From contig JANOTL010000151.1 in assembly GCA_031416315.1 (NCBI GenBank), forward strand, positions 1 through 15,063: 15,063 bases of DNA, written 5' to 3'. The notes below the pieces were generated by a model. The model did no database searches and was not told the origin of the DNA. It saw nothing but the letters and a program-made list of their open reading frames with translations. This DNA comes from Pseudomonadota bacterium (GTDB taxonomy: Bacteria; Bdellovibrionota_B; Oligoflexia; Oligoflexales; CAIYRB01). Below are positions 133 through 15,063 of this stretch, piece by piece. Both the position numbers and the translations under genes were made by a program. Every line of letters begins with the position of its first letter. Position 1 is the first letter of the stretch.

Positions 133-148
133 AACTAAGGCCTTAGTT
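133..148. promoter_or_regulatory. Palindromic operator 1 (AACTAAGGCCTTAGTT), likely BlaI-family binding site
   Basis: Perfect 16-bp palindrome just upstream of a BlaI-family gene; ACTA-N6-TAGT geometry like BlaI/MecI operators. Confidence 0.8.
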
Positions 149-175
149 GCATCCAACTAAGATCTTAGTTACAGT
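147..175 (+). promoter_or_regulatory. Sigma70-type promoter for the blaI-M56 operon (leaderless)
   Basis: TTGCAT (147-152) - 17 bp - TACAGT (170-175); ATG at 182 follows a 6-nt gap; no Shine-Dalgarno. Confidence 0.7.
155..170. promoter_or_regulatory. Palindromic operator 2 (AACTAAGATCTTAGTT), likely BlaI-family binding site
   Basis: Perfect 16-bp palindrome matching operator 1 at 14/16 positions, 22 bp downstream of it, filling the -35/-10 spacer. Confidence 0.8.
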
Positions 176-181
176 CATCCC

Positions 182-562
182 ATGAAGAAAAAAGCCGTCA
201 CCCTGACCGAAGCCGAGCTCGAGCTCATGACCATTCTCTGGCGCGTCGGCGAAGCGACGGTCCGCCAAGTGATGGGCGAACTGCCCTCAGACCGCGCCCT
301 CGCCTACACCTCCGTGTCGACGATCCTGCGCATCCTCGAGGGCAAGAAGATCGTCGCGACCCGCAAAGAAGGGCAGGCTCACTTCTATGCGCCGCTCCTC
401 GAGAAGTCCGAGTACGAGCGCACGAGCCTCGAGCGGCTCGTCACCACCGTTTTTGACGGCGAGGCGTCGGCCCTCGTTGCGCGCCTGATCGACACCGAGT
501 CACTCGATAAAGCCGAGCTCGACCGCCTCCGCAAGCTCCTCGACGAAAGGCTCGCGCCATGA
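182..562 (+). CDS. BlaI/MecI/CopY family transcriptional repressor
   Basis: LTEAELELMTILW...TVRQV...LAYTSVSTILRILEGK...FYAPLL...FDGEASALVARLI pattern of the penicillinase-repressor family; ATGA overlap with an M56 gene. Confidence 0.95.
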   Translation: MKKKAVTLTEAELELMTILWRVGEATVRQVMGELPSDRALAYTSVSTILRILEGKKIVATRKEGQAHFYAPLLEKSEYERTSLERLVTTVFDGEASALVARLIDTESLDKAELDRLRKLLDERLAP

Positions 563-2187
563 CGCTCGCCGCGTATCTCGGCGCGCACGTCGCGCTTGCG
601 TGCGCTTGGCTGGCGTTCCGCGCTTGGCTGGCGCTCGTCGAGCTGTCCAAGGACGGCTTTCGCATCGCGTGGAGGACGCGCGTGGCCGTGGGCCGCGGTC
701 TCCTCGTCGCGAGTCTGCTCGCCGTCCCCTTCGCGGCGCTTTTGCCGCGCCATCGAGCGCTCCAGGGAGCGACGCGGATCTGGGCCCTCGTCGTGAAAGA
801 GGTCAGTCCGGCTGCGACCAAGCCGGGGGCGGTCGACCTGGAAACGGGAAAGCGGCTCGCGCTCGCCAAAGCCGAGCCGACCCTCGCGGCACGCGCCGAG
901 CTGTTCGGCGGCCTCGCCCTTGCCGGCGCCGCCACGGTGGAGATCGTCCTCTTCGGCCTCGGCATTTACCGCATCCGTCGCCTCCTGCGCCGCGGCTTGG
1001 CGTTGCGCCGCATCGGACGGGTCGCCGTCTTTGCGCAAGCGGACCCCGCCGTGCCGTTCGCGCTGTGGACACCGCGCTCGGCGCTGATTTCCCTGCCCCA
1101 GGCGATGGCGGCCGAGCCGGGCGCGCTGGCGCTGGCCCTGCGCCACGAAGGCCAACATCACCGCCACGGCGACCCCGCCTGGCTCTGGGCTTTGGCGCTA
1201 TTGGCGCCGCTCTTCCCCTTGAATCCCTTCACGAGGCTCTGGCGCAAGACGTTCCAGGACCTTCATGAGTTGGCTTGCGACGAAGCGCTGCTCGGCCGGG
1301 CGCGCCTCGATCCGCAAGCCTACGGGCACTGTCTCGTCTCGGTCGCCGAGGCAGCGCTCCTGGCCCGTGCCCTTCCGCCTGGTACGGCGGGAATGGCGGC
1401 GGATCCGTGCGACCCCAATCGCTCCAAACACTTACTTTCTAGGAGAATCGCGATGTTTCCGCGTCATCTCATGCTCGGCGAAAGTCCCCGTGCCGCGGCC
1501 CGCGCCGCGCGCCGGGCCCTCGCCGGCGCCGTCCTGCTCGTCGGCTGTCTCGGCTCCTTGGCTTATGCGGCGCAAGGCGCCAGGCCGCGTCCGCCGCTCA
1601 CCCTCGAAGAAACCCGCGAGATCGTGCGCGGCATCGAGGTGAGCGCCGACTTTCCCCTCGCCGTGAACGATGCCGTCCTCTCTCGACTCAACCGCGCCGT
1701 CACCGACCCGCAGCGGGCGGCGTTCGTGAAGGCCTCGCTCGAACGGATGGAGCTCTACCGGCCGCTCATCGAGCCGGAGCTCGCCCGCCTCGGCTTTCCG
1801 AAGGCGATCCTCGCGGTCCCCCTCGTCGAGTCGGGGTATCAGAATTTGCCGCAGCAGGTCGTCGGCGCCGGCATTTGGCAGTTCATCCAGCGGACCGCGC
1901 GGCGCTACGGGCTGCGCGTGGATGCCGAGGTCGACGAACGCTTGGACGTCGAGAAGGAGACCGACGCGGCGATGCGCCTCCTCGGCGACGACAAGCGCAT
2001 GTTCGGCGGCGACTGGCTCCTGGCGCTCGCGGCGTACAATCAAGGCGAAGCGCACGTCCAGAAGGCGATCCGCGACGGCGGCGCGCGTAATGCCTGGGAG
2101 CTCGTCGAAGCCGGGCTCCTGAACGACTACATTGCTTACGTGACGGCCGGGGCGATCTTGATCCACCGCCCGGACCTCTTGGAATGA
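559..2187 (+). CDS. BlaR1-like M56 metallopeptidase fused to a C-terminal MltD-like lytic transglycosylase (SLT) domain
   Basis: N-terminal hydrophobic segments, HEGQH zinc motif followed by HGD, ELACDE, RRI motif and a last hydrophobic segment; then SLT motifs VES, AGIWQF, YGL...DERLD, ALAAYNQGE. Confidence 0.92.
   Translation: MTLAAYLGAHVALACAWLAFRAWLALVELSKDGFRIAWRTRVAVGRGLLVASLLAVPFAALLPRHRALQGATRIWALVVKEVSPAATKPGAVDLETGKRLALAKAEPTLAARAELFGGLALAGAATVEIVLFGLGIYRIRRLLRRGLALRRIGRVAVFAQADPAVPFALWTPRSALISLPQAMAAEPGALALALRHEGQHHRHGDPAWLWALALLAPLFPLNPFTRLWRKTFQDLHELACDEALLGRARLDPQAYGHCLVSVAEAALLARALPPGTAGMAADPCDPNRSKHLLSRRIAMFPRHLMLGESPRAAARAARRALAGAVLLVGCLGSLAYAAQGARPRPPLTLEETREIVRGIEVSADFPLAVNDAVLSRLNRAVTDPQRAAFVKASLERMELYRPLIEPELARLGFPKAILAVPLVESGYQNLPQQVVGAGIWQFIQRTARRYGLRVDAEVDERLDVEKETDAAMRLLGDDKRMFGGDWLLALAAYNQGEAHVQKAIRDGGARNAWELVEAGLLNDYIAYVTAGAILIHRPDLLE
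1441..1455 (+). promoter_or_regulatory. Putative internal ribosome-binding site and in-frame ATG (Met299) within the M56-SLT gene
   Basis: AGGAG (1441-1445), 7 nt, ATG (1453-1455) in frame; codons TTA CTT TCT AGG AGA are atypical for this GC-rich gene; a signal-peptide-like segment follows. Confidence 0.55.
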
Positions 2188-2783: not shown

Positions 2784-3539
2784 ATGCGGTTCGATATTGT
2801 GGTGCTCACCCTCCTGTTCGCCGCCGAGGCGAAGGCCCGCGAGGTCGATTGGCCCCGTGAGCTCGCCTTCGACGCCGCTCTCGGCGCCGCCACGCTCGGC
2901 GTCGCCGCGATCGCCGCCGATTCGAACGGCGTCGAGCGCGGGAAATTTCCGACACAAAGGGCCGACGACAAAGTGCATCAGACGCTGCACGGCGACGACA
3001 CCGGGCCCGCGCCGACGCCGAAGGAGAAAAGGTGGCGGCAGGCGTCCGACGTCTCCGTCATCGGCATCTCGGTCGCGCCGGCGGCGATCGCTCTCATCGA
3101 CGACTCGCCGGAGACGGCGGGCAAAGTGCTCACCGTCGCGCACACGCTCCTGCTCGAGAATTTCATCGTCACCGGCATCAAGACCTCGGTGCGCCGGCCG
3201 CGGCCGAAGCCGAACGCGTACCCGAGCGTCCCGGCGAAGGGGGACGACACCCTGTCCTTTCCGTCGGGTCACTCGTCGGCAGCGTTCGCGGGCGCGACGC
3301 TCTTCGCCCGGCTTTTCCCTGAGGCCTCGCTGGCGGCGAAGCTCGGCGCTTTCGGCGTCGCGGGGATGACGGCTTTGGCGCGGATCGAGGGCGACAAGCA
3401 CTTTTTCACCGACACCGCCGTGGGCGCGCTGATCGGCGCCGGGACGGCGCTAGGGGTGACGGCTTGGCACCGGGACGACGGCGCGGCCGTGGCCTTGCTC
3501 GTCGTCGAGAACGGGCTTGGGGTCACGCTCGCTCTGTGA
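2784..3539 (+). CDS. PAP2 superfamily phosphatase, probably exported or membrane-bound
   Basis: Motifs KTSVRRPRP, SFPSGH, ARIEGDKHFFTD; start moved to ATG 2784 (SD GGAGGGGGAG, signal-peptide-like N-terminus). Confidence 0.9.
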   Translation: MRFDIVVLTLLFAAEAKAREVDWPRELAFDAALGAATLGVAAIAADSNGVERGKFPTQRADDKVHQTLHGDDTGPAPTPKEKRWRQASDVSVIGISVAPAAIALIDDSPETAGKVLTVAHTLLLENFIVTGIKTSVRRPRPKPNAYPSVPAKGDDTLSFPSGHSSAAFAGATLFARLFPEASLAAKLGAFGVAGMTALARIEGDKHFFTDTAVGALIGAGTALGVTAWHRDDGAAVALLVVENGLGVTLAL

Positions 3540-5614: not shown

Positions 5615-6202
5615 TCATTCGATCGCGGCCCAGAGGCGACGCCGCTCGTCGTCGGAAAGGGTCTCGCCCCCGATCAGATATTCCGTCGCCGTCACGCTAC
5701 TTTGCTTCTGCACGCCGCGCATGCGCATGCACATGTGCTCGGCGGTCACACGCACGACGACGGCCCGTGGCGCGACCGCTTCGCGGATGCCTTCGGCGAC
5801 TTGTCGCGTCAGACGCTCCTGGACTTGCAAGCGCCGTGCAAAGAGGTCGACGATGCGCGGGACCTTCGACAGCCCGAGGATCGAGGCGCCCGGATAGTAG
5901 GCGACGCTCGCCTTGCCCCAGAACGGCAGGACGTGATGCTCACAGAGACTGTGGAACTCGAGATCGCGAACGGCGATCAGACCTCCGCCTTCGGCGGCGA
6001 ATACGCCTTCGCCGATGGCGTCGCGCACGGTGAGGCGATATCCGGAGCAGAGCTCGGTGAACGCTTTCGCGAAGCGCTCGGGCGTGCGGACGAGGCCCTC
6101 GCGGGCAACGTCTTCGCCAACAGCGGCGAGGAGCTCGAGGCCTGCCTTCTGCAGCCGAAATTTTGGGGTCGGGGTGGGGTCTTGGTCGTCACGGAGCAGC
6201 AT
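5615..6202 (-). CDS. folE: GTP cyclohydrolase I
   Basis: TPERFAKA, SLCEHHVLPF, GLSKVPRIVDLFARRLQVQERLT, HMCMRMRGV motifs; SD GAGGGA. Confidence 0.97.
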   Translation of the reverse strand: MLLRDDQDPTPTPKFRLQKAGLELLAAVGEDVAREGLVRTPERFAKAFTELCSGYRLTVRDAIGEGVFAAEGGGLIAVRDLEFHSLCEHHVLPFWGKASVAYYPGASILGLSKVPRIVDLFARRLQVQERLTRQVAEGIREAVAPRAVVVRVTAEHMCMRMRGVQKQSSVTATEYLIGGETLSDDERRRLWAAIE

Positions 6203-6301: not shown

Positions 6302-7249
6302 TTGAAATTAGGTAGTTACACCGTTCAGGCAGCCGCAGCGCGGGCTGGCATCTCCACCCACACGCTGCGGGCTTGGGAGGCACGTTACCGGGCGGTCGAA
6401 CCGGAGCGAGCCCCGTCGGGGCACCGACGCTATGGCGAGCACGACGTCGAGCGCCTGCAAAAGATCGCGGCGCTCGTGCGTTGCGGCCATGCGGTCGGCG
6501 AGGTCGCCGGCCTCGCGGACATAGCGCTCGACCGGCTCTTCCAGACGGAGCCGCAGCGCGCCAGCCGCCGCCTGCCGCTCGACGCCTCGCCCGGCATCCG
6601 CGCCCGCGCCGACTCCCTGATGCAGGCGATCGAGACGTTCGACATCGCGCGCGTGACGATGCACGTGAAATGGCTCCGCGCCGCGCTCGGCGTCCGCGCC
6701 TTCGTGCTCGGCGTGGCCGTGCCTCTGTTCGCACGGCTCGGTGAGCTCGTCGCGGCCTCTTCGCTCGACGTCTGCCAGGAGCACGCGTTGTCCGCCGTGA
6801 TGCGCGACCAGCTGGGCGACATGTCGCATTCGTTGCAGGCGCTTTCCTGCGGCGAGGTGCCGGAAACGACGGTCGTCTTCGCGGCGCCGGAAGACGATCT
6901 GCACGAGTTCGGCATCCTCCTCGGCGCGGCGCTCGCGAGCGTCCACGGGCTCGGCGTTTACTACGCCGGGGCCAATTTGCCGGCCAAAAACCTAGCCGCC
7001 GCCGTGGCAGCGGTCCGCGCGCCTCTCGTCGTGCTCGGCAACGCGCCCGTGCCGGCGACCGAGCGGCGCATCGCCTTCGCGGACTACTTGGCGCAGCTCG
7101 ACGGGCTTTTGCCGCCAACGGTCGACCTCGTTGTCGGCGGGGCCGGCGACCGGCCGCGCACGAGCTTGGATAGCCACCGCACATTCGCGTACGTCAACGC
7201 GCTGGACGAGCTCGACCACCTGTTGGAGACGCGATCTAGAAAAGGTTGA
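6302..7249 (+). CDS. MerR-family regulator with cobalamin-binding domain (CarH/CarA/LitR-like)
   Basis: MerR HTH (TLRAWEARY...SGHRRY), helical bundle with EH motif (QEHALS), B12 motif DLHEFG, YYAGANLP; TTG start with GGGGAA SD. Confidence 0.92.
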   Translation: MKLGSYTVQAAAARAGISTHTLRAWEARYRAVEPERAPSGHRRYGEHDVERLQKIAALVRCGHAVGEVAGLADIALDRLFQTEPQRASRRLPLDASPGIRARADSLMQAIETFDIARVTMHVKWLRAALGVRAFVLGVAVPLFARLGELVAASSLDVCQEHALSAVMRDQLGDMSHSLQALSCGEVPETTVVFAAPEDDLHEFGILLGAALASVHGLGVYYAGANLPAKNLAAAVAAVRAPLVVLGNAPVPATERRIAFADYLAQLDGLLPPTVDLVVGGAGDRPRTSLDSHRTFAYVNALDELDHLLETRSRKG

Positions 7250-8476: not shown

Positions 8477-8992
8477 TCAGGCGCGAGTGGCAGGCACGTT
8501 CACCGGATTGCGGCCGGAGGGGTTTCTGGCCTCTTCCGTGATCCGATCCTGCAGGGTCATCAGACCGGCGAGCACGGCTTCCGGGGTCGGCGGGCAGCCG
8601 GCGACGTAGATGTCGACCGGGATGATGCGGTCGACGCCTTGGAGAACATGGTAAGCGCGGTAAAAGCCGCCGCTCGAGGCGCAGGCGCCCATGGCCATCA
8701 CCCACTTGGGCTCGGCCATCTGCTCGTAGACCTTTTTGATCACGGGCGCCATCTTCTCGGTGATGGTGCCGGCGACGATCATCAGGTCGGCCTGACGGGG
8801 GGAGAAGCGCACGGCCTCGGCGCCGAAGCGCGCGATGTCGTACTTCGGGCCGACGACCGACATGTACTCGACGCCGCAGCAGGCGGTGCCGAAGGGGTAC
8901 GGCCAGAGCGAGTTCTTCCGGCCCCAGGCCACGAACTCGCGGAACTTGGTCAGGAAGAACGTATTCTCGAGGCCGTCCATCGGATTCTTCAT
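8477..8992 (-). CDS. nuoB: NADH-quinone oxidoreductase subunit B (no other nuo genes adjacent)
   Basis: [47 protein letters not shown]; all four N2-cluster cysteines present. Confidence 0.95.
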
Positions 8993-8996
8993 CGCT

Positions 8997-9491
8997 TCAC
9001 CGTCTTTGACTTGGGGCCCGACACTCTTTCATCGCGAAGGCCATCATCGGCAGGGCCGAAGAAAGGCTTTGTCCGTGCGACCGCTTGGCGACGAGGTCAG
9101 CCAGGATTATGCCAGAAAGACTGGCGCTGATCGCAGCGGAAATTTCGCTCCAGGCGTCCCGCGAGCTGCACTGGTGCTCGAGGACGCAGCCGGCGCCGCC
9201 CTCGAGGCACTGGACGGGCTGGAAGCTGTCCTCGACGGCCGTGAAGATCTCCAAGACCGAGACGCGGTCGGCGGGGGTGCTGAGGCGGTAGCCGCCCCCA
9301 CGGCCGCGGGTGGAAGCGATGAGGCCCGCCTCGCGCAGCCGCGAGAGGACGTGGTCCATGTAGTCGAGCGGGATGCCCTGGCGCTTCGAGATGTCGGTGC
9401 GTTGCGCGACCGCGCCGGTCCCGGTGGGATCGCGCTCGGCCAGATCCATGAGGATCTTCAACGCATAACGACTCTTCGAAGTGATGTTCAT
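8997..9491 (-). CDS. Rrf2 family (IscR-like) transcriptional regulator with three Fe-S cysteines
   Basis: SKSRYAL...[38 protein letters not shown]-x6-C-x5-C ([15 protein letters not shown]); ATGA overlap with the upstream gene. Confidence 0.95.
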
Positions 9492-9910
9492 TCGTGCACC
9501 GGGATCACGTCCACGATTTGGTCCTGCCCGAACTTGTCCTGCAGCTGCCCCAGAACGCCGTTGAGGAGCGTGATCGTGGACGAGGGGCAGCCCTGACAGC
9601 CGCCGCCGAGGCGGATGTGGGTCTGGCCGGCCTCATAGGCCTCCAGCCGGGCGAAGCCGGAGTGCAGGGCGAGCATGTCGGAGACCTCGCCCTCGAGGAA
9701 GAGGGCGATGTCCTTGGCGAGACCCGTGAACCGGTCGCTCGTCTTCGGCTCGGCGAACGCGCCGTCGTCGTCCATGCCGAGGAGCTTCCTCATCTCGTCC
9801 TCGGCTTCGTCCTTGGTCAGGCCGTGCGAGACTTTGCCGGAGGGGACGTGCTGGGCCATGAAGCTGCCGTCGACCTTTTTGCTGATCACGACGGATTGCA
9901 GATCGCTCAT
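9488..9910 (-). CDS. NifU C-terminal (CxxC) domain protein with HicB-like N-terminal domain
   Basis: Start at ATG 9910 (ATGA overlap); C-terminal IRLGGGCQGCPSSTITL is a NifU domain; N-terminus VVISKKVDGSFMAQ..SHGLTKDEAEDEM resembles the HicB N-domain. Confidence 0.85.
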   Translation of the reverse strand: MSDLQSVVISKKVDGSFMAQHVPSGKVSHGLTKDEAEDEMRKLLGMDDDGAFAEPKTSDRFTGLAKDIALFLEGEVSDMLALHSGFARLEAYEAGQTHIRLGGGCQGCPSSTITLLNGVLGQLQDKFGQDQIVDVIPVHE

Positions 9911-10482
9911 AGCGCGACGACCTCGAGGTAGGGGTTGTATTCGGTGCGCAGAATGCCTTCGATGGCCTGGAGCGTCCCCATCATCGAAGAAGGGCAGCCG
10001 CCGCAGGCGCCTTGGTAACGGATGGTCAGGATGTTGCCCTCGAGCTCGAGGATCTCGACGTCGCCGCCGTCGGCCTGGAGCCCGGGCCGAATGGTGCGAT
10101 CCAGGATCTCCTCGATGGTGACGACGTCGGGGGGAAGGAGCGCGCGGTCTTGCGCCGTCTTCGCGGCGGACGCGCCCGCGAGCGCGTCTTCGAAGGCGGG
10201 ATCGTGGAGTGGCAGGAGGGTCTCGACGACGTTGGTCACCGCCGCTTCGAGGATGTCCCAGTCGGAGCCGCCGTTCTGCGTGATCGTCGCGACGTTCTCG
10301 AAGAGGTGCACCTGCGTGACGTTCGCCAGCCGCAGGAGCGCGGCGGCGAGCGGCACGTGCGCGCACTCGTGCTCGTCGGTGTAGGAGATCTTCCCCTCGC
10401 GCTTCAGGTCCATGCTGGTGATGAACTTGCGGGCGTTGGGGTTCGGCGTCTGCTGGATTTTGATTCTGATCAAGGAAGTCAT
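9907..10482 (-). CDS. Nfu1/NifU-like Fe-S carrier (Nfu_N + NifU domains)
   Basis: QTPNPNARKF N-domain; IRPGLQADGGDVE...YQGACGGCPSS; start at ATG 10482 overlapping the sufU stop. Confidence 0.95.
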   Translation of the reverse strand: MTSLIRIKIQQTPNPNARKFITSMDLKREGKISYTDEHECAHVPLAAALLRLANVTQVHLFENVATITQNGGSDWDILEAAVTNVVETLLPLHDPAFEDALAGASAAKTAQDRALLPPDVVTIEEILDRTIRPGLQADGGDVEILELEGNILTIRYQGACGGCPSSMMGTLQAIEGILRTEYNPYLEVVAL

Positions 10483-10937
10483 TCGGTGGACACCGTTTGG
10501 CTGCGGTCGAGCGCGCCGTTCATCGTATGCCAGGAAAGCGCCGCGCACTTCACGCGGGCAGGATACTGCCAGATGCCGGAGAAAATCTTGAGCTTGCCCA
10601 GCTGATGCGGCTCGGTGTCCGGATTCAGCTCGCCGAGCAGGAGCTTATGGAACTCGGTGAAGATCGTCTTCGCCTCGTCGACCGTCTTGCCAGTGAGCGT
10701 GACGGTCATCATCGAGGCGGACGCCTTGCTGATGGCGCAGCCGGAGCCCTCGAAGCCGACTTTCTCGATCTTCCCCGCGAAGTCGACGGTGAGATAGATC
10801 CAGAGGTGATCGCCGCACAATGGGTTGAAGCCTTCGGCCGTGTGCGTCGCGCCTTCGAGCTTGCCGAAGTTCTTGGGCTTCTTGTTGTGCTCCAGAATGA
10901 CCTGTTGGTAGAGGTCGGCCTGGACGTTGGTCGTCAT
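10479..10937 (-). CDS. sufU: SUF system SufU sulfur-transfer/scaffold protein
   Basis: LYQQVILEHNKKPKNFG, NPLCGD, GCAISKASAS, RVKCA; insertion before the third Cys and no LPPVK, so SufU rather than IscU. Confidence 0.95.
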   Translation of the reverse strand: MTTNVQADLYQQVILEHNKKPKNFGKLEGATHTAEGFNPLCGDHLWIYLTVDFAGKIEKVGFEGSGCAISKASASMMTVTLTGKTVDEAKTIFTEFHKLLLGELNPDTEPHQLGKLKIFSGIWQYPARVKCAALSWHTMNGALDRSQTVSTE

Positions 10938-12172
10938 GCGAAGATCTTCTGCGCCTTGCGGATCGCCTCGACGAGGGCGTCCACTTCGGCCTTGGTGTTG
11001 TACAGGGAGAAGGAAGCGCGCGCCGTCGCCGGCACGCCGAAACGGGCCATGAGCGGCTGGGTGCAGTGATGCCCCGCGCGAATGGCGACGCCCTCGGCAT
11101 CCAGGAGCGAGCCGATGTCGTGTGGATGCACGTCGTCGAGGAAGAAGCCGCAGATCGCGGTCTTTTTCTTGGCCGTGCCGATCAAGCGGAGGCCGGGGAT
11201 CTCGCGGAGGCGCTCGGTCGCATAGGCGAGGAGCTCCTGCTCCCAGGCGTTGATCGCCTCGAGGCCCACGGAGTTGACGTAGTCGATGGCCGCGCCGAGG
11301 CCGATGACGCCGCCGATGTTCGGGGTGCCCGCCTCGAATTTCACCGGCAGGCCGGCGTAAGTGGTCTTCTCGAACGTGACGGAGCGGATCATGTCGCCGC
11401 CGCCGAAGACGGGCGGCATCTTCTCGAGGAGCGCCCTTTTACCGTAGAGGACGCCGGTCCCCGTCGGGCCGAAGAGCTTGTGCGCCGAGAAGGCGAGGAA
11501 GTCGACGTCGAGCGCTTGCACGTCGAGCGGCACGTGCGCGACGGCCTGCGCGCAGTCCATGAACACTACGGCTTCCGGCGCGTGGGCGCGGACGAGGCGG
11601 ATCAGCTCGGCGGCGGGGTTCACCGTGCCGAGGGCGTTGGAGATGTAGACGAAGGAGACGATCTTCGTGCGCGGCGAGAGGAGCTTCTGGAATTCTTCGA
11701 GGATGATTTCGCCGCTGTCGTCGACAGGAGCGACCTTCAGCTTCGTGCCGCGCTCTTCCCCCAGCATCTGCCACGGCACGATGTTGGAGTGATGCTCCAT
11801 GTGCGTAATCAGGACTTCGTCGCCGTCCTTCAGGAAGGTGCCGTAGCTCTTCGCGACGAGGTTGACGCTCGCCGTGGTGCCGGAGGTCAGGACGATCTCG
11901 GCGTTTTCCTTGGCGTTGAGGAAGAGGCGGATCTTGGCGCGCGCCTCTTCGTACTGGCGCGTCGCGACTTCCGACAGAAAGTGCACGCCGCGGTGGACGT
12001 TGGCGGCGCCGAGGAGAAAGTGCTTCTCGACGGCCTCGACGACCGAGCGCGCCTTCAGCGTCGTGGCGGCGCTGTCGAGGTAGACCAGGGGTTTTCCGCG
12101 CGCCAAAGTGCCGAGCGCCGGGAAATCGGCGCGCACCTTGAAGACGTCCCACTTATTCGGGGCCCCGTTCAT
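10934..12172 (-). CDS. sufS: Cysteine desulfurase SufS
   Basis: LVYLDSAATT, EHHSNIVPWQ, FSAHKLFGPTG, FEAGTP, RAGHHC (class II); start at ATG 12172 overlapping the sufD stop. Confidence 0.97.
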   Translation of the reverse strand: MNGAPNKWDVFKVRADFPALGTLARGKPLVYLDSAATTLKARSVVEAVEKHFLLGAANVHRGVHFLSEVATRQYEEARAKIRLFLNAKENAEIVLTSGTTASVNLVAKSYGTFLKDGDEVLITHMEHHSNIVPWQMLGEERGTKLKVAPVDDSGEIILEEFQKLLSPRTKIVSFVYISNALGTVNPAAELIRLVRAHAPEAVVFMDCAQAVAHVPLDVQALDVDFLAFSAHKLFGPTGTGVLYGKRALLEKMPPVFGGGDMIRSVTFEKTTYAGLPVKFEAGTPNIGGVIGLGAAIDYVNSVGLEAINAWEQELLAYATERLREIPGLRLIGTAKKKTAICGFFLDDVHPHDIGSLLDAEGVAIRAGHHCTQPLMARFGVPATARASFSLYNTKAEVDALVEAIRKAQKIFA

Positions 12173-13572
12173 TTGGGCAAAAGTTTCCGAAAGCGTTCGC
12201 GATGAAAAGGCATGGGAAAGCGTAGCAGCACCTCGTCGGCAAAGCCCAGAGCCAGGATCCGCACCGCGACGTCGCGGGGGATGGCGCGGCTCTGGAGATA
12301 GAAGATCTGGTCCTGGTCGAGCGGGCCGACGGCGGCGCCGTGGGCGCACTTGACGTCGTCGGCGTCGATCTCGAGCTGGGGTTTCGTGTCGATCTCGCAC
12401 TCGGAGCTCAGCAACAAATTCTTGTTGAGCTGGTGCGCCGCGGTCTTCTGCGCGTCCTGGCGGACGAAGACCTTGCCGTTGAAGACGGCGCGGGACTGGT
12501 CCTCGAGAATGCCCTTGTAGAGCTGGCTCGAGACGGTGTGGGGGACGCGGTGGTCGACGGTCGTGTGGTTGTCGACGTGGCGCTTGCCGTTCACGAGGTA
12601 GAAGCCGTCGAGGACGACCTCGGCGCCTTCGCCGTTGAGCGCGACGTCGAGGTCGTTACGGGTGACCTTGCCGCCGTGCGTGAGCGCATAGGTGGTGAGC
12701 TTCGCGTCGCGGGAGAGCTGGGCGCGGGTCGAGGCGACGTGGAAACCGTGCTCCGAATCTTGCTGGATCTTCGCGTGGGTCAGGTGCGCGCCGGCGGCGA
12801 GGTCGAGCTCGGTGACGCCGCAAACCAGCGTGCGGGCGCCGGGCGCGGAGACGTGGGTCTCGAGAACCGTGGCCTCCGCGAGCTCGCCCAGGCGGACGAC
12901 GACGCGGGGGAAGCGGGCGACGCCGCCGGTTGCGGCGATGTGGACGATATGCAGCGGCTTCTCGAGCTTCACCTTGCGGTCGATCTCGATCAAGAGGCCG
13001 GCGTCGAGAAAGGCCATGTTCAGCGCTTCGAAGGCGCGAGACCCGGCGAGGGCGGCGGCGAAGCGCGGCTCCAAGACCTCGACGCGCGTGGCGACGGCGT
13101 CGGTCAGCGGGGTGACGCGGACGCCTTCGGGCAGCGCGCCGAGCTTGGACCAGGCGGTCGAGAGGAGGCCGTCGTCGAAGACGATCGTGTGCTCGTCGGC
13201 CTGGAGCAAGGACTCCAGGGTGGCGGCGGAGAACAGGGCCGCGGCGCGCGCGTCGCCGGCGGCGACTCCGGAGGCGGCGGCGGATTTGGCGGCGTCTAAG
13301 GTCGAGACGCCGAGGCCGGCGAGGACGGCGGCGCCGGAATGAGCGTGGGCCCAAGGCGCCTCGTCCAAGCCGCGGAGCGAGGTGTATTTCCACTCTTCCT
13401 CCGAGCGCGTCGGAATCCCGAGGGTGGAGAAGCGGGCAAACGCGTCGCGGCGCAAGCGCGCGAGCCATGCCGGCTCGGCGGCGCGCATCTTCGCGAAGGC
13501 GGCGAAGGTCGCGTCAAGGCCGGCGAGCTTCGGGCCGAGGGTCACCGCGGGATTAGTTAAGGAGCCAGTCAT
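12169..13572 (-). CDS. sufD: Fe-S cluster assembly protein SufD
   Basis: EEWKYT, FNGKVFV, NKNLLLS, DTKPQLEIDADDVKCAHGA, FYLQSRAI. Confidence 0.96.
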   Translation of the reverse strand: MTGSLTNPAVTLGPKLAGLDATFAAFAKMRAAEPAWLARLRRDAFARFSTLGIPTRSEEEWKYTSLRGLDEAPWAHAHSGAAVLAGLGVSTLDAAKSAAASGVAAGDARAAALFSAATLESLLQADEHTIVFDDGLLSTAWSKLGALPEGVRVTPLTDAVATRVEVLEPRFAAALAGSRAFEALNMAFLDAGLLIEIDRKVKLEKPLHIVHIAATGGVARFPRVVVRLGELAEATVLETHVSAPGARTLVCGVTELDLAAGAHLTHAKIQQDSEHGFHVASTRAQLSRDAKLTTYALTHGGKVTRNDLDVALNGEGAEVVLDGFYLVNGKRHVDNHTTVDHRVPHTVSSQLYKGILEDQSRAVFNGKVFVRQDAQKTAAHQLNKNLLLSSECEIDTKPQLEIDADDVKCAHGAAVGPLDQDQIFYLQSRAIPRDVAVRILALGFADEVLLRFPMPFHRERFRKLLPK

Positions 13573-14311
13573 AGCCCCTTTCCTCGATCTCGAGCGCCAG
13601 CGACTTGTCGCCGGTCTTGATGATCTTGCCGCCGTGCAGCACGTGCACGAAGTCGGGAACGATGTAGTTCAGGATGCGCTGGTAGTGGGTGATCAAGACG
13701 ACCGCGTTGTCCGCGGTGCGCAGCTTGTTCACGCCTTCGGAGACGACGCGGAGGGAGTCGACGTCGAGACCGGAGTCGGTCTCGTCGAGGATGGCCAAGC
13801 GCGGATTCAGGACGGCCATCTGGAGGATCTCGTTCCTTTTCTTCTCGCCGCCGGAGAAGTCGACGTTCACCTGCCGGTCGATGAACTTCTCGTCCATGCC
13901 GAGGAAACGCGCCTTGGCGCGGATCAAGTCGTCGAAGTCCAGGGCGTCCATCTCCTCCACGCCCTGGTGGCGACAGATGGCGTTGAAGGAGGCGCGCAGG
14001 AATTCGCTGTTGGCGACGCCCGGAATCTCCACCGGGTACTGGAAAGCGAGGAAGACGCCTTCGCGGGCGCGCTGGTCGGCGGAGAGCTCGAGGAGGGACT
14101 TCTGCTTGAAGTTGACCTCGAGCTGGACGGAGCCGCGAGTGACCTCGTAATCCGGATGGCCGGCGATCACCTTCGAGAGGGTGCTCTTGCCGGAGCCGTT
14201 CGGGCCCATGATGGCGTGGACCTCGTTCTCTTTGACCTCGAGGGTGAGGCCCTTGAGAATCTCGGCGCCGGAGGCGCCGACCTTGGCGTGCAGGTCTTTG
14301 ATCGTGAGCAT
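13553..14311 (-). CDS. sufC: Fe-S cluster assembly ATPase SufC
   Basis: Walker A GPNGSGKST, FLAFQYPVEIPGV, FSGGEKKRNEILQ, LDETDSGLD, ITHYQRIL. Confidence 0.98.
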   Translation of the reverse strand: MLTIKDLHAKVGASGAEILKGLTLEVKENEVHAIMGPNGSGKSTLSKVIAGHPDYEVTRGSVQLEVNFKQKSLLELSADQRAREGVFLAFQYPVEIPGVANSEFLRASFNAICRHQGVEEMDALDFDDLIRAKARFLGMDEKFIDRQVNVDFSGGEKKRNEILQMAVLNPRLAILDETDSGLDVDSLRVVSEGVNKLRTADNAVVLITHYQRILNYIVPDFVHVLHGGKIIKTGDKSLALEIEERGYDWLLN

Positions 14312-15063
14312 TTAGCCGACGCTTCCTTCTAGCTTCATTTCCAGGAGCTTCACCGCCTCGACCGAGAACTCGAGCGGCAGCTCCTTGAAGACTTCCTTGC
14401 AGAAGCCGTTCAGAAGGAGGCTCACGGCGCCCTCGTCGTCGATGCCGCGCGATTTCAGATAGAAGATCTGCTCGGCGTTGATCTTGGACGTGGTCGCCTC
14501 GTGCTCGACGGTGGCGGTCTGATTCTTCACTTCGATGTAGGGATAAGTGTTGGCGTGGCAGCGGTCGCCGACGAGCATCGAGTCGCACTGCGAGTAATTG
14601 CGCGCGTTGTCGGCCGAGGGCAGGATCTTGACTTGACCACGGTAACTGTTCACCGACTCGTCGGCGGAGATGCCCTTCGAGACGATCTTGCTCGTGGTGT
14701 TCTTGCCGATATGCACCATCTTGGTGCCGGTGTCGGCCTGCATCTTATGGTTGGTCAGCGCGACGGAGTAGAATTCGCCGCGCGAGTCGTCGCCCTTCAG
14801 AATGACGCTCGGATATTTCCAGGTGATGGCGGAGCCCGTCTCCACCTGGGTCCAAGAGATCTTCGACTTGCGGCCGGCGCAGAGGCCGCGCTTGGTGACG
14901 AAGTTGTAGATGCCGCCCTTGCCGTCCTTGTCGCCGGCGTACCAGTTCTGCACGGTCGAGTACTTGATCTCGGCTTCGTCGTGGGCGACGAGCTCGACGA
15001 TCGCGGCGTGGAGTTGGTTCTCGTCCCTTTGCGGCGCCGTGCAGCCTTCGAGGTAGCTGACGT
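14312..15063 (-). CDS. sufB: Fe-S cluster assembly protein SufB (5' end beyond the window)
   Basis: Frame open to the window edge: [28 protein letters not shown]...[41 protein letters not shown]. Confidence 0.98.

Follow-up and report, generated by a model that had tools for sequence, protein, structure and literature searches.

Evidence for a conserved internal translation start within an M56 peptidase-transglycosylase fusion gene and other M56 genes

The blaI-M56-SLT operon and its internal start signal

The window, by which we mean the whole stretch of 15,063 nucleotides that was analysed (contig JANOTL010000151.1), has at its start a two-gene operon (182-2187) in which a blaI repressor gene is followed by a gene fusing an M56 peptidase to an SLT (transglycosylase) domain. 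The features of the operon are the following.

133..148, no strand: operator-like palindrome 1, AACTAAG-GC-CTTAGTT, likely a BlaI site (predicted)
147..175, + strand: promoter-like TTGCAT-17 nt-TACAGT, overlapping both palindromes
155..170, no strand: operator-like palindrome 2, AACTAAG-AT-CTTAGTT, 22 bp after palindrome 1
182..562, + strand: BlaI/MecI/CopY-family repressor, 126 aa (PF03965, E 8.6e-31)
559..2187, + strand: full-length M56 peptidase-SLT fusion, 542 aa (PF05569, PF01464)
1144..1281, + strand: protease core H196-E197-x-x-H200, E237, D241, invariant in 49 sequences
1426..1440, + strand: A/U-rich, weakly folded stretch before the internal Shine-Dalgarno sequence; about 95% of equal windows of the gene fold more stably
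1441..1445, + strand: internal Shine-Dalgarno (SD) sequence AGGAG, in the codons of R295-R296
1453..2187, + strand: predicted nested product, 244 aa, an export/anchor helix plus an MltD-like SLT domain without LysM
1516..1569, + strand: hydrophobic segment ending A-Y-A, residues 320-337 (model helix 310-340, hydropathy scan)
1798..2103, + strand: SLT catalytic domain (PF01464, residues 414-515, E 2.7e-20)

In the genome of the window (G000, 93% complete), exact ACTAA-N4-TTAGT boxes occur at the blaI-M56-SLT operon only. Tandem boxes were found in 109 of the 122 upstream regions of homologous loci, and these palindromes are likely the BlaI operator of the M56-SLT subfamily. Besides 8-nt spacers, 9-nt spacers occur between boxes, and a search for single boxes covered both. 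The TTG/TAnnnT layout of the window recurs in 71 of the 109 tandem-box loci; a consensus promoter scan found none, the TTGCAT-17 nt-TACAGT element scoring below its threshold. The blaI gene of the window has no SD and its transcript may be nearly leaderless. The window begins at a contig end, 132 bp before the operator, and a divergent gene of G000 may lie beyond it. Poly-T and poly-C runs are present near this end (51-60 and 114-130). A search of sequencing runs listed no RNA run with this sequence. A contig from one of four DNA runs matches the window from 145 to 2300 without differences, the run being possibly the source of the assembly and not independent of it. Since this contig starts at 145, the first 130 bases of the window may be of poor quality.

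The blaI stop codon overlaps the ATG of the fusion gene (ATGA), as in 83 of 102 homologues. The fusion is an M56 member, BlaIR-like in its working and not a canonical BlaR1. Its PF05569 match scores 40.6 bits (cut-off 31), and 48 full-length homologues carry both the M56 and the SLT domain. Residues H196, E197, H200, E237, D241, R296 and the SLT residue Glu424 are invariant in the 49 aligned proteins; Glu424 (codon at 1828) is likely the catalytic Glu of the SLT domain. In the AlphaFold model (pLDDT 90), a helix spanning residues 286-306 holds R295-R296 and Met299, and is followed by a long helix (310-340) and then by the SLT domain. Sequence and model agree in predicting that segment 320-337 is the last transmembrane helix of the fusion, and it is also the predicted signal peptide of the short form. 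By analogy with BlaR1, the fusion would act as a sensor protease that cleaves BlaI after a signal.

A Foldseek search with the model retrieved Pseudomonas aeruginosa MltD-bulgecin complexes and S. aureus BlaR1. Canonical MltD has C-terminal LysM domains. The P. aeruginosa enzyme, solved in complex with bulgecin A (PDB 8RHE, 8RHF, and 8RHI), is the closest solved relative of the SLT domain (8RHE, E 5e-35), the fold agrees, and the MltD motifs ES, GxWxF, and AYNxG are retained in the predicted SLT domain of the fusion. Unlike in MltD, this domain is fused to M56, no LysM match was found, and the protein ends 27 residues past the SLT match.

The original prediction had proposed a gene within this gene, started by an AGGAG 7 nt before an in-frame ATG at 1453. 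This signal is indeed there: from 1426 the DNA reads AAACACTTACTTTCT AGGAG AATCGCG ATG, the spacer after AGGAG is 7 nt and the ATG encodes Met299 of the 542-aa ORF 559-2187. The turn to AT-rich DNA was confirmed as well (GC 0.50 at 1411-1470 vs about 0.7 around it), and the five codons described as rare for the gene are rare genome-wide (TTA 0.8%, CTT 6.8%, TCT 3.5%, AGG 3.0%, and AGA 1.2%, shares calculated from 1,959 long ORFs that were selected by a crude GC3 filter). Arg-Arg pairs of the genome spell GGAG in 33 of 4,618 cases, and AGGAG stands ahead of 66 of 17,860 internal Met codons. The ordinary first-ATG starts of this genome have a GGAG spacer peak at 6-7 nt. The anti-SD sequence used for the SD calls is one that we assumed; the 16S tail is absent from the assembly. 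A hairpin of -9 kcal/mol in the mRNA of the window can pair part of the internal SD, and this counts against initiation. The internal ORF 1453-2187 holds the full PF01464 match, as expected from the claim that a 244-aa product would carry the whole SLT domain.

Conservation of the SD and Met in M56 genes

Two scans gave a homologue set of 160 loci. With the window included, 157 loci were long enough to align and 149 were non-redundant; 4 of the 161 loci were too short, and duplicates were removed at 97, 70, and 60% identity. L298 (not an M56 frame), L319 (from the unpublished genome G559), and L339 (outside the motif regex) were also left out. By record title, most of the homologues come from Bdellovibrionales and Oligoflexia, and some others from Acidobacteriota, Steroidobacteraceae, and Desulfosarcina.

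The nucleotide comparison suggested with the prediction gave a result far above chance. Of 141 homologues, 129 spell GGAG with the codons of the Arg-Arg pair, when 7.8 would be expected from each gene's own Arg codon use, as do 69 of 77 homologues below 60% identity (4.4 expected). In the same proteins, GGAG was present in only 2 of 42 cases of the control motif RR[IVLFM]G and 24 of 424 of all other Arg-Arg pairs. The bias persists in genes of 70% GC that have 1-6 AGR codons vs 40-50 other Arg codons. The Met is kept at R+3 or R+4 in 107 of 120 homologues, so that the pattern named as contrary to the prediction, homologues with ordinary CGN codons and no Met, is not what the family shows. Most of the Met-less homologues do use CGN codons, and a Met-less clade (L078, L106, L112, L131, L143, L146, and L151) has ordinary codons such as CGC CGG. 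Two loci have TTG (L001) or GTG (L135) in the Met slot and retain AGG AGA, and two others (L051 and L293) have Trp-Arg (TGG AGA) in place of Arg-Arg and retain GGAG. The M56-transpeptidase and M56-M23 fusions of the homologue set carry the same signal. Counting a Met as near the motif if it lies within R-4 to R+7, an SD core was found in 102 of the 110 homologues with such a Met (11.4 expected) vs 2 of the 10 without it (1.2 expected), and ahead of 69 of 1,336 other internal Met codons, which is below expectation. We discounted the observation that the internal SD is stronger than that of the gene's first start in 90 of 102 genes, a biased figure because the genes were picked for their internal SD.

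Genome searches and plasmid records gave 126 further M56 genes after filtering. Here too the SD core goes with the Met: it is present in 49 of 68 genes with a Met near the motif (11.9 expected), in 4 of 58 genes without one (7.2 expected), and at 69 of 1,277 other Met codons (85 expected). The remaining 19 of the 68 have the Met without an SD core, so a Met here is also acceptable to the protein itself. Five of the 49 SD-positive genes (four SLT and one transpeptidase) fall in the wider clade of the homologue set. The 49, out of the 126 genes sampled, are found in Pseudomonadota, Acidobacteriota, Bacillota, and the phylum of the window, and the domains behind their internal start are TonB_C (11 of 49), transpeptidase, NAGPA, HEAT, TPR, and unknown ones. 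The internal start is thus common but not universal in M56 genes.

In both sets the residues that carry the SD are mostly RR (118), then KE (6), GD (5), GR (3), RS (3), WR, LE, and others, and the position of the SD shifts along with that of the Met. Over 151 genes, the spacer from GGAG to ATG is mainly 7 nt (55 genes) or 10 nt (69 genes); the latter, in 69 of the 151, exceeds the 6-7 nt peak of the window's genome and counts against initiation. In 16 independent tree pairs differing in the Met, the SD follows the Met in 9.3, opposes it in 0.2, and stays the same in 6.5 (FastTree tree with the motif columns excluded; median p 0.004, range 0.001-0.07). Compared with synonymous controls, the site is less folded in SD-positive genes (z +0.69 and +1.02) and not in SD-less genes (-0.14). 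GC3 is lowered on both sides of the Met in SD-positive genes, as at gene starts, over about 8 codons after it. The sequences thus show selection for the internal SD, for the Met, and for weak folding of the mRNA.

These data bear on two explanations that do not involve initiation. It has been suggested, though this is contested, that SD-like stretches within genes slow down ribosomes, and the SD-like sequence with its rare Arg codons might program a pause before the last membrane helix, the Met being only a hydrophobic residue of the helix. The tandem AGG/AGA is rare in this genome and the site does precede a topologically important last helix. A pause, however, needs no Met, yet the SD and the Met co-vary; the SD keeps step with the Met when the register changes and frequently consists of codons that are not rare, the ATG can be swapped for TTG or GTG in the Met slot, and SD-less M56 proteins share the same helix. 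We regard a pause as quite improbable. An internal promoter, or a frameshift stimulated by the SD, could also lie behind the conserved nucleotides, and TACTTT occurs in the A/T-rich patch of the window just upstream of the SD. Against a promoter, TAnnnT is enriched in no 10-nt bin of the 120 nt upstream in 151 genes, and the consensus scan found no promoter-like site within the gene. Against a frameshift, the counts of out-of-frame stops (105 vs 95 expected and 55 vs 78) and of slippery sites (13 vs 10) gave no enrichment. Both seem barely credible to us. On these comparisons, we consider internal initiation at 1453, inside the M56-SLT gene, to be very probable.

Fusions of M56 to a transpeptidase (PF00905) at L046, L124, L125, and L177 have an internal SD and Met and could yield a free penicillin-binding or class D-like domain. 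M56-glycosyltransferase-51 fusions (PF00912) were seen at L168 and L235, with no internal SD or Met. L164 and L341 have a second Met (NENMKEKLL and EKTMKSKYL), surrounded by A-rich sequence and immediately ahead of the last membrane helix, which may be a shifted or SD-independent internal start. No M56-SLT relative was found in viral contigs, and a search of plasmid DNA with the L215 stretch gave no match.

Relation to BlaR1 and possible routes to a free enzyme

The BlaI-BlaR1/MecI-MecR1 systems of S. aureus (PDB 8EXP-8EXT) share with the window a BlaI-family repressor and the HExxH...E zinc site. D241 and R296 of the fusion correspond to Asp246 and Arg294 of BlaR1. Both proteins have an amphipathic helix, then the last membrane helix with a signal-peptidase-like site after it, and an outside domain related to a cell-wall enzyme, which is SLT in the fusion instead of the C-terminal penicillin-binding transpeptidase domain of BlaR1. 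The gene order of the window, blaI and then the sensor, also differs from that of S. aureus. At the motif, S. aureus blaR1 reads AAA AGA AGA TTA ATT AAT, with neither SD nor Met. Unlike in canonical BlaR1/MecR1 systems, a separate divergent effector gene is absent from the homologous loci, the view in G000 being limited by the contig end.

According to PMC9834060, BlaR1 cuts itself at Ser283/Phe284. Helices 9 and 10 are domain-swapped, so that the active-site residue Arg294 acts in trans, and the proposed purpose of the self-cut is maturation and turnover rather than signalling. The self-cut aligns about 14 residues upstream of the Met299 equivalent, R296 aligns with Arg294, and Met299 stands three residues beyond it. 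The suggestion that the same effector fragment might arise by translation as well as by autocleavage did not hold, since the autocleavage fragment keeps Arg294 and the internal product starts after it. The two routes could give an identical protein only in its mature state, once signal peptidase has acted.

The same source, in the part available, describes cutting of full-length BlaR1 at the equivalent place by the S. aureus signal peptidase, which sheds the sensor (PMC9834060). A free SLT domain could therefore arise without internal initiation, and the SD and ATG could be the relic of a once separate transglycosylase gene, the free enzyme being made only by proteolysis of the fusion. Short SLT proteins of 235-245 aa with the same N-terminus are indeed present in the protein set (244-aa query), but almost all of them come from contigs of 1-4 kb and may be gene calls on fragments, and they were left out of the counts. 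A relic also does not explain why synonymous sites are fixed between genes less than 60% identical, or why the SD lies inside the M56 active-site helix and not in a linker. No stop was found at the M56/SLT junction in the 157 loci long enough to align, with a search pattern that favoured fused forms. We hold the relic to be highly improbable.

The signal-peptide look that the prediction had noted in the short form stood in part. The basic n-region, which is long (about 21 residues), the h-region, and A335-Y-A337 are all there, but they do not argue for the start. Regions n, h, and c with AxA occur in 76% of SD-positive family members and equally in SD-negative genes, and the AxA fractions from the hydropathy scan were 0.76 and 0.53 in SD-positive vs 0.88 and 0.46 in SD-negative genes. 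SD-negative genes share the basic-hydrophobic-AxA pattern because it is that of the last transmembrane helix of every M56 protein, and we rejected signal-peptide features as evidence for the internal start.

Separate effector genes and the predicted role of the short form

No conserved neighbour was found for the 104 complete SLT-length fusions within flanks of 1.5 kb (78 downstream and 71 upstream), the largest neighbour cluster being six loci with an acyltransferase-3 gene. This gene adjoins 7 of 18 SD-negative loci and none of the 131 SD-positive loci, 67 of which have long flanks on either side; it is often directly behind the operator or divergent from it; because six of the 7 cases form one clade, the contrast amounts to about two events. 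The acyltransferase-3 genes (PF01757) lie at L078:2140-3318, L106:2275-3459, and L131:2227-3414 and at L092, L112, L146, and L151, all start-less loci, and are a candidate envelope O-acylation response. A class A beta-lactamase-like gene (PF13354) was also observed at L151:2590-3450, directly after the SD-negative M56-SLT gene. In G062, which is SD-positive, another operator pair directly precedes a gene for a polysaccharide deacetylase (PF01522, L118:2670-3578 and L332:2848-3828), which is likely a further member of the regulon, so the nested product would not always be the sole output.

Six canonical BlaR1/MecR1-type genes (L224, L225, L226, which is truncated, L227, L232, and L336) have neither SD nor Met. 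Five of them adjoin an annotated bla, mec, or PBP gene, and none is annotated for L225 within 4 kb. The blaI-M56-X operons of Bacillus (L223, L337, and L338) and Clostridium (L228) have both SD and Met. The distribution fits a short form that stands in for a separate effector gene.

In the mechanism that we propose, which is modelled on BlaR1, the SLT domain of the intact fusion would bind a signal from the cell wall, and this would activate the zinc protease; as a guess, the signal might be a piece of glycan, or else bulgecin or another inhibitor of transglycosylases. The active protease would then cut BlaI and derepress the operon. Translation would begin at 559, where it is coupled to that of blaI, and also at 1453. 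Neither the protease nor the active-site Arg would be part of the short form, its last membrane helix would serve as signal peptide, and removal of this peptide at A337/A338 would give a free enzyme. A single gene would in this way replace the blaR1 and blaZ pair. The original prediction of one locus making both a sensor-protease fusion and a 244-aa exported transglycosylase is supported by the conservation of the SD (129/141) and of the Met (107/120).

Internal initiation could also be real with the short form acting as a regulator that damps induction and not as the effector. A free copy of the sensing domain could soak up the signal, or an anchored form could fill the swapped-helix site without bringing the active-site Arg; a dominant-negative or decoy role is possible because the internal product has no equivalent of Arg294. 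Such a role would suit the many C-terminal domains, unrelated to one another, that are found behind this internal start, and Arg294 of BlaR1 works in trans according to PMC9834060, the short form starting just after that Arg. On the other hand, a pure regulator would leave most SD-positive modules without a visible output, the catalytic Glu of the SLT domain does not vary, the start was lost where a separate gene was gained (in about two events), and the internal start before TonB_C yields a normal-looking TonB. We think a regulator rather unlikely. Given initiation, the effector role of the short form is reasonably likely from these sequence patterns, and for the reading as a whole, in which internal initiation makes a co-induced exported MltD-like enzyme that is the output of the module, we put the chances slightly above even.

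In-frame internal starts that give two products are known from lambda S105/S107 and CopA(Z), and Cas11b is reportedly another proteoform of this kind. A review (PMC13515050) adds CheA(L)/CheA(S) and CcmM58/35, with two products per ORF, and contains no occurrence of BlaR or M56. What sets the M56 case apart is that codons of active-site residues spell the SD, that the short form would move to another compartment, and that a single signalling family has this layout repeatedly, ahead of C-terminal domains of many unrelated kinds.

The non-canonical BlaIR system CenIR of Clostridioides difficile is, as here, a two-gene blaI-M56 operon without a beta-lactam-binding domain (PMC13492132, from the part available). 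The same text counts about 15,000 M56 proteins in 254 architectures, about 6% of them with a transpeptidase domain, and treats the C-terminal domains purely as sensors; none of the terms 'internal', 'start codon', 'Shine', and 'ribosome binding' occurs in it. We found no report of an internal start in M56/BlaR genes in full text, in a literature with few subscription journals and with supplementary ribosome-profiling tables outside its scope. We give even chances to the broader idea that in a large share of the approximately 15,000 M56/BlaR-like proteins the sensing domain doubles as the effector, by means of a ribosome binding site on the active-site helix. If this is true, cutting of the repressor would lead to release of this domain as a free envelope protein, for example a transglycosylase, a transpeptidase, or TonB. 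The output of many orphan two-gene BlaIR operons would thereby be accounted for, and the pair of canonical BlaR1 and blaZ would represent this design in split form. The nested start would be a direct and testable answer to what many such operons produce, and DNA alone would predict which systems are self-contained (SD-positive) and which use a separate effector (SD-negative). Genes annotated as 'M56 family metallopeptidase' would then hide unannotated exported enzymes, including putative transpeptidase-family domains.

Downstream of the operon, two short convergent fragments at 2281-2708, which seem to resemble the DNA-binding tail of a response regulator (- strand) and the ATPase tail of a histidine kinase (+ strand), are possibly remnants or a mis-join. 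They are followed by genes for a PAP2 phosphatase (2784-3539), GTP cyclohydrolase I (5615-6202), and a MerR/B12-binding (CarH-like) regulator (6302-7249). The - strand from 8477 to 15061 presumably carries a suf Fe-S cluster operon (sufB, C, D, S, U-like, NifU-like, and an Rrf2 regulator) and then a nuoB-like gene.
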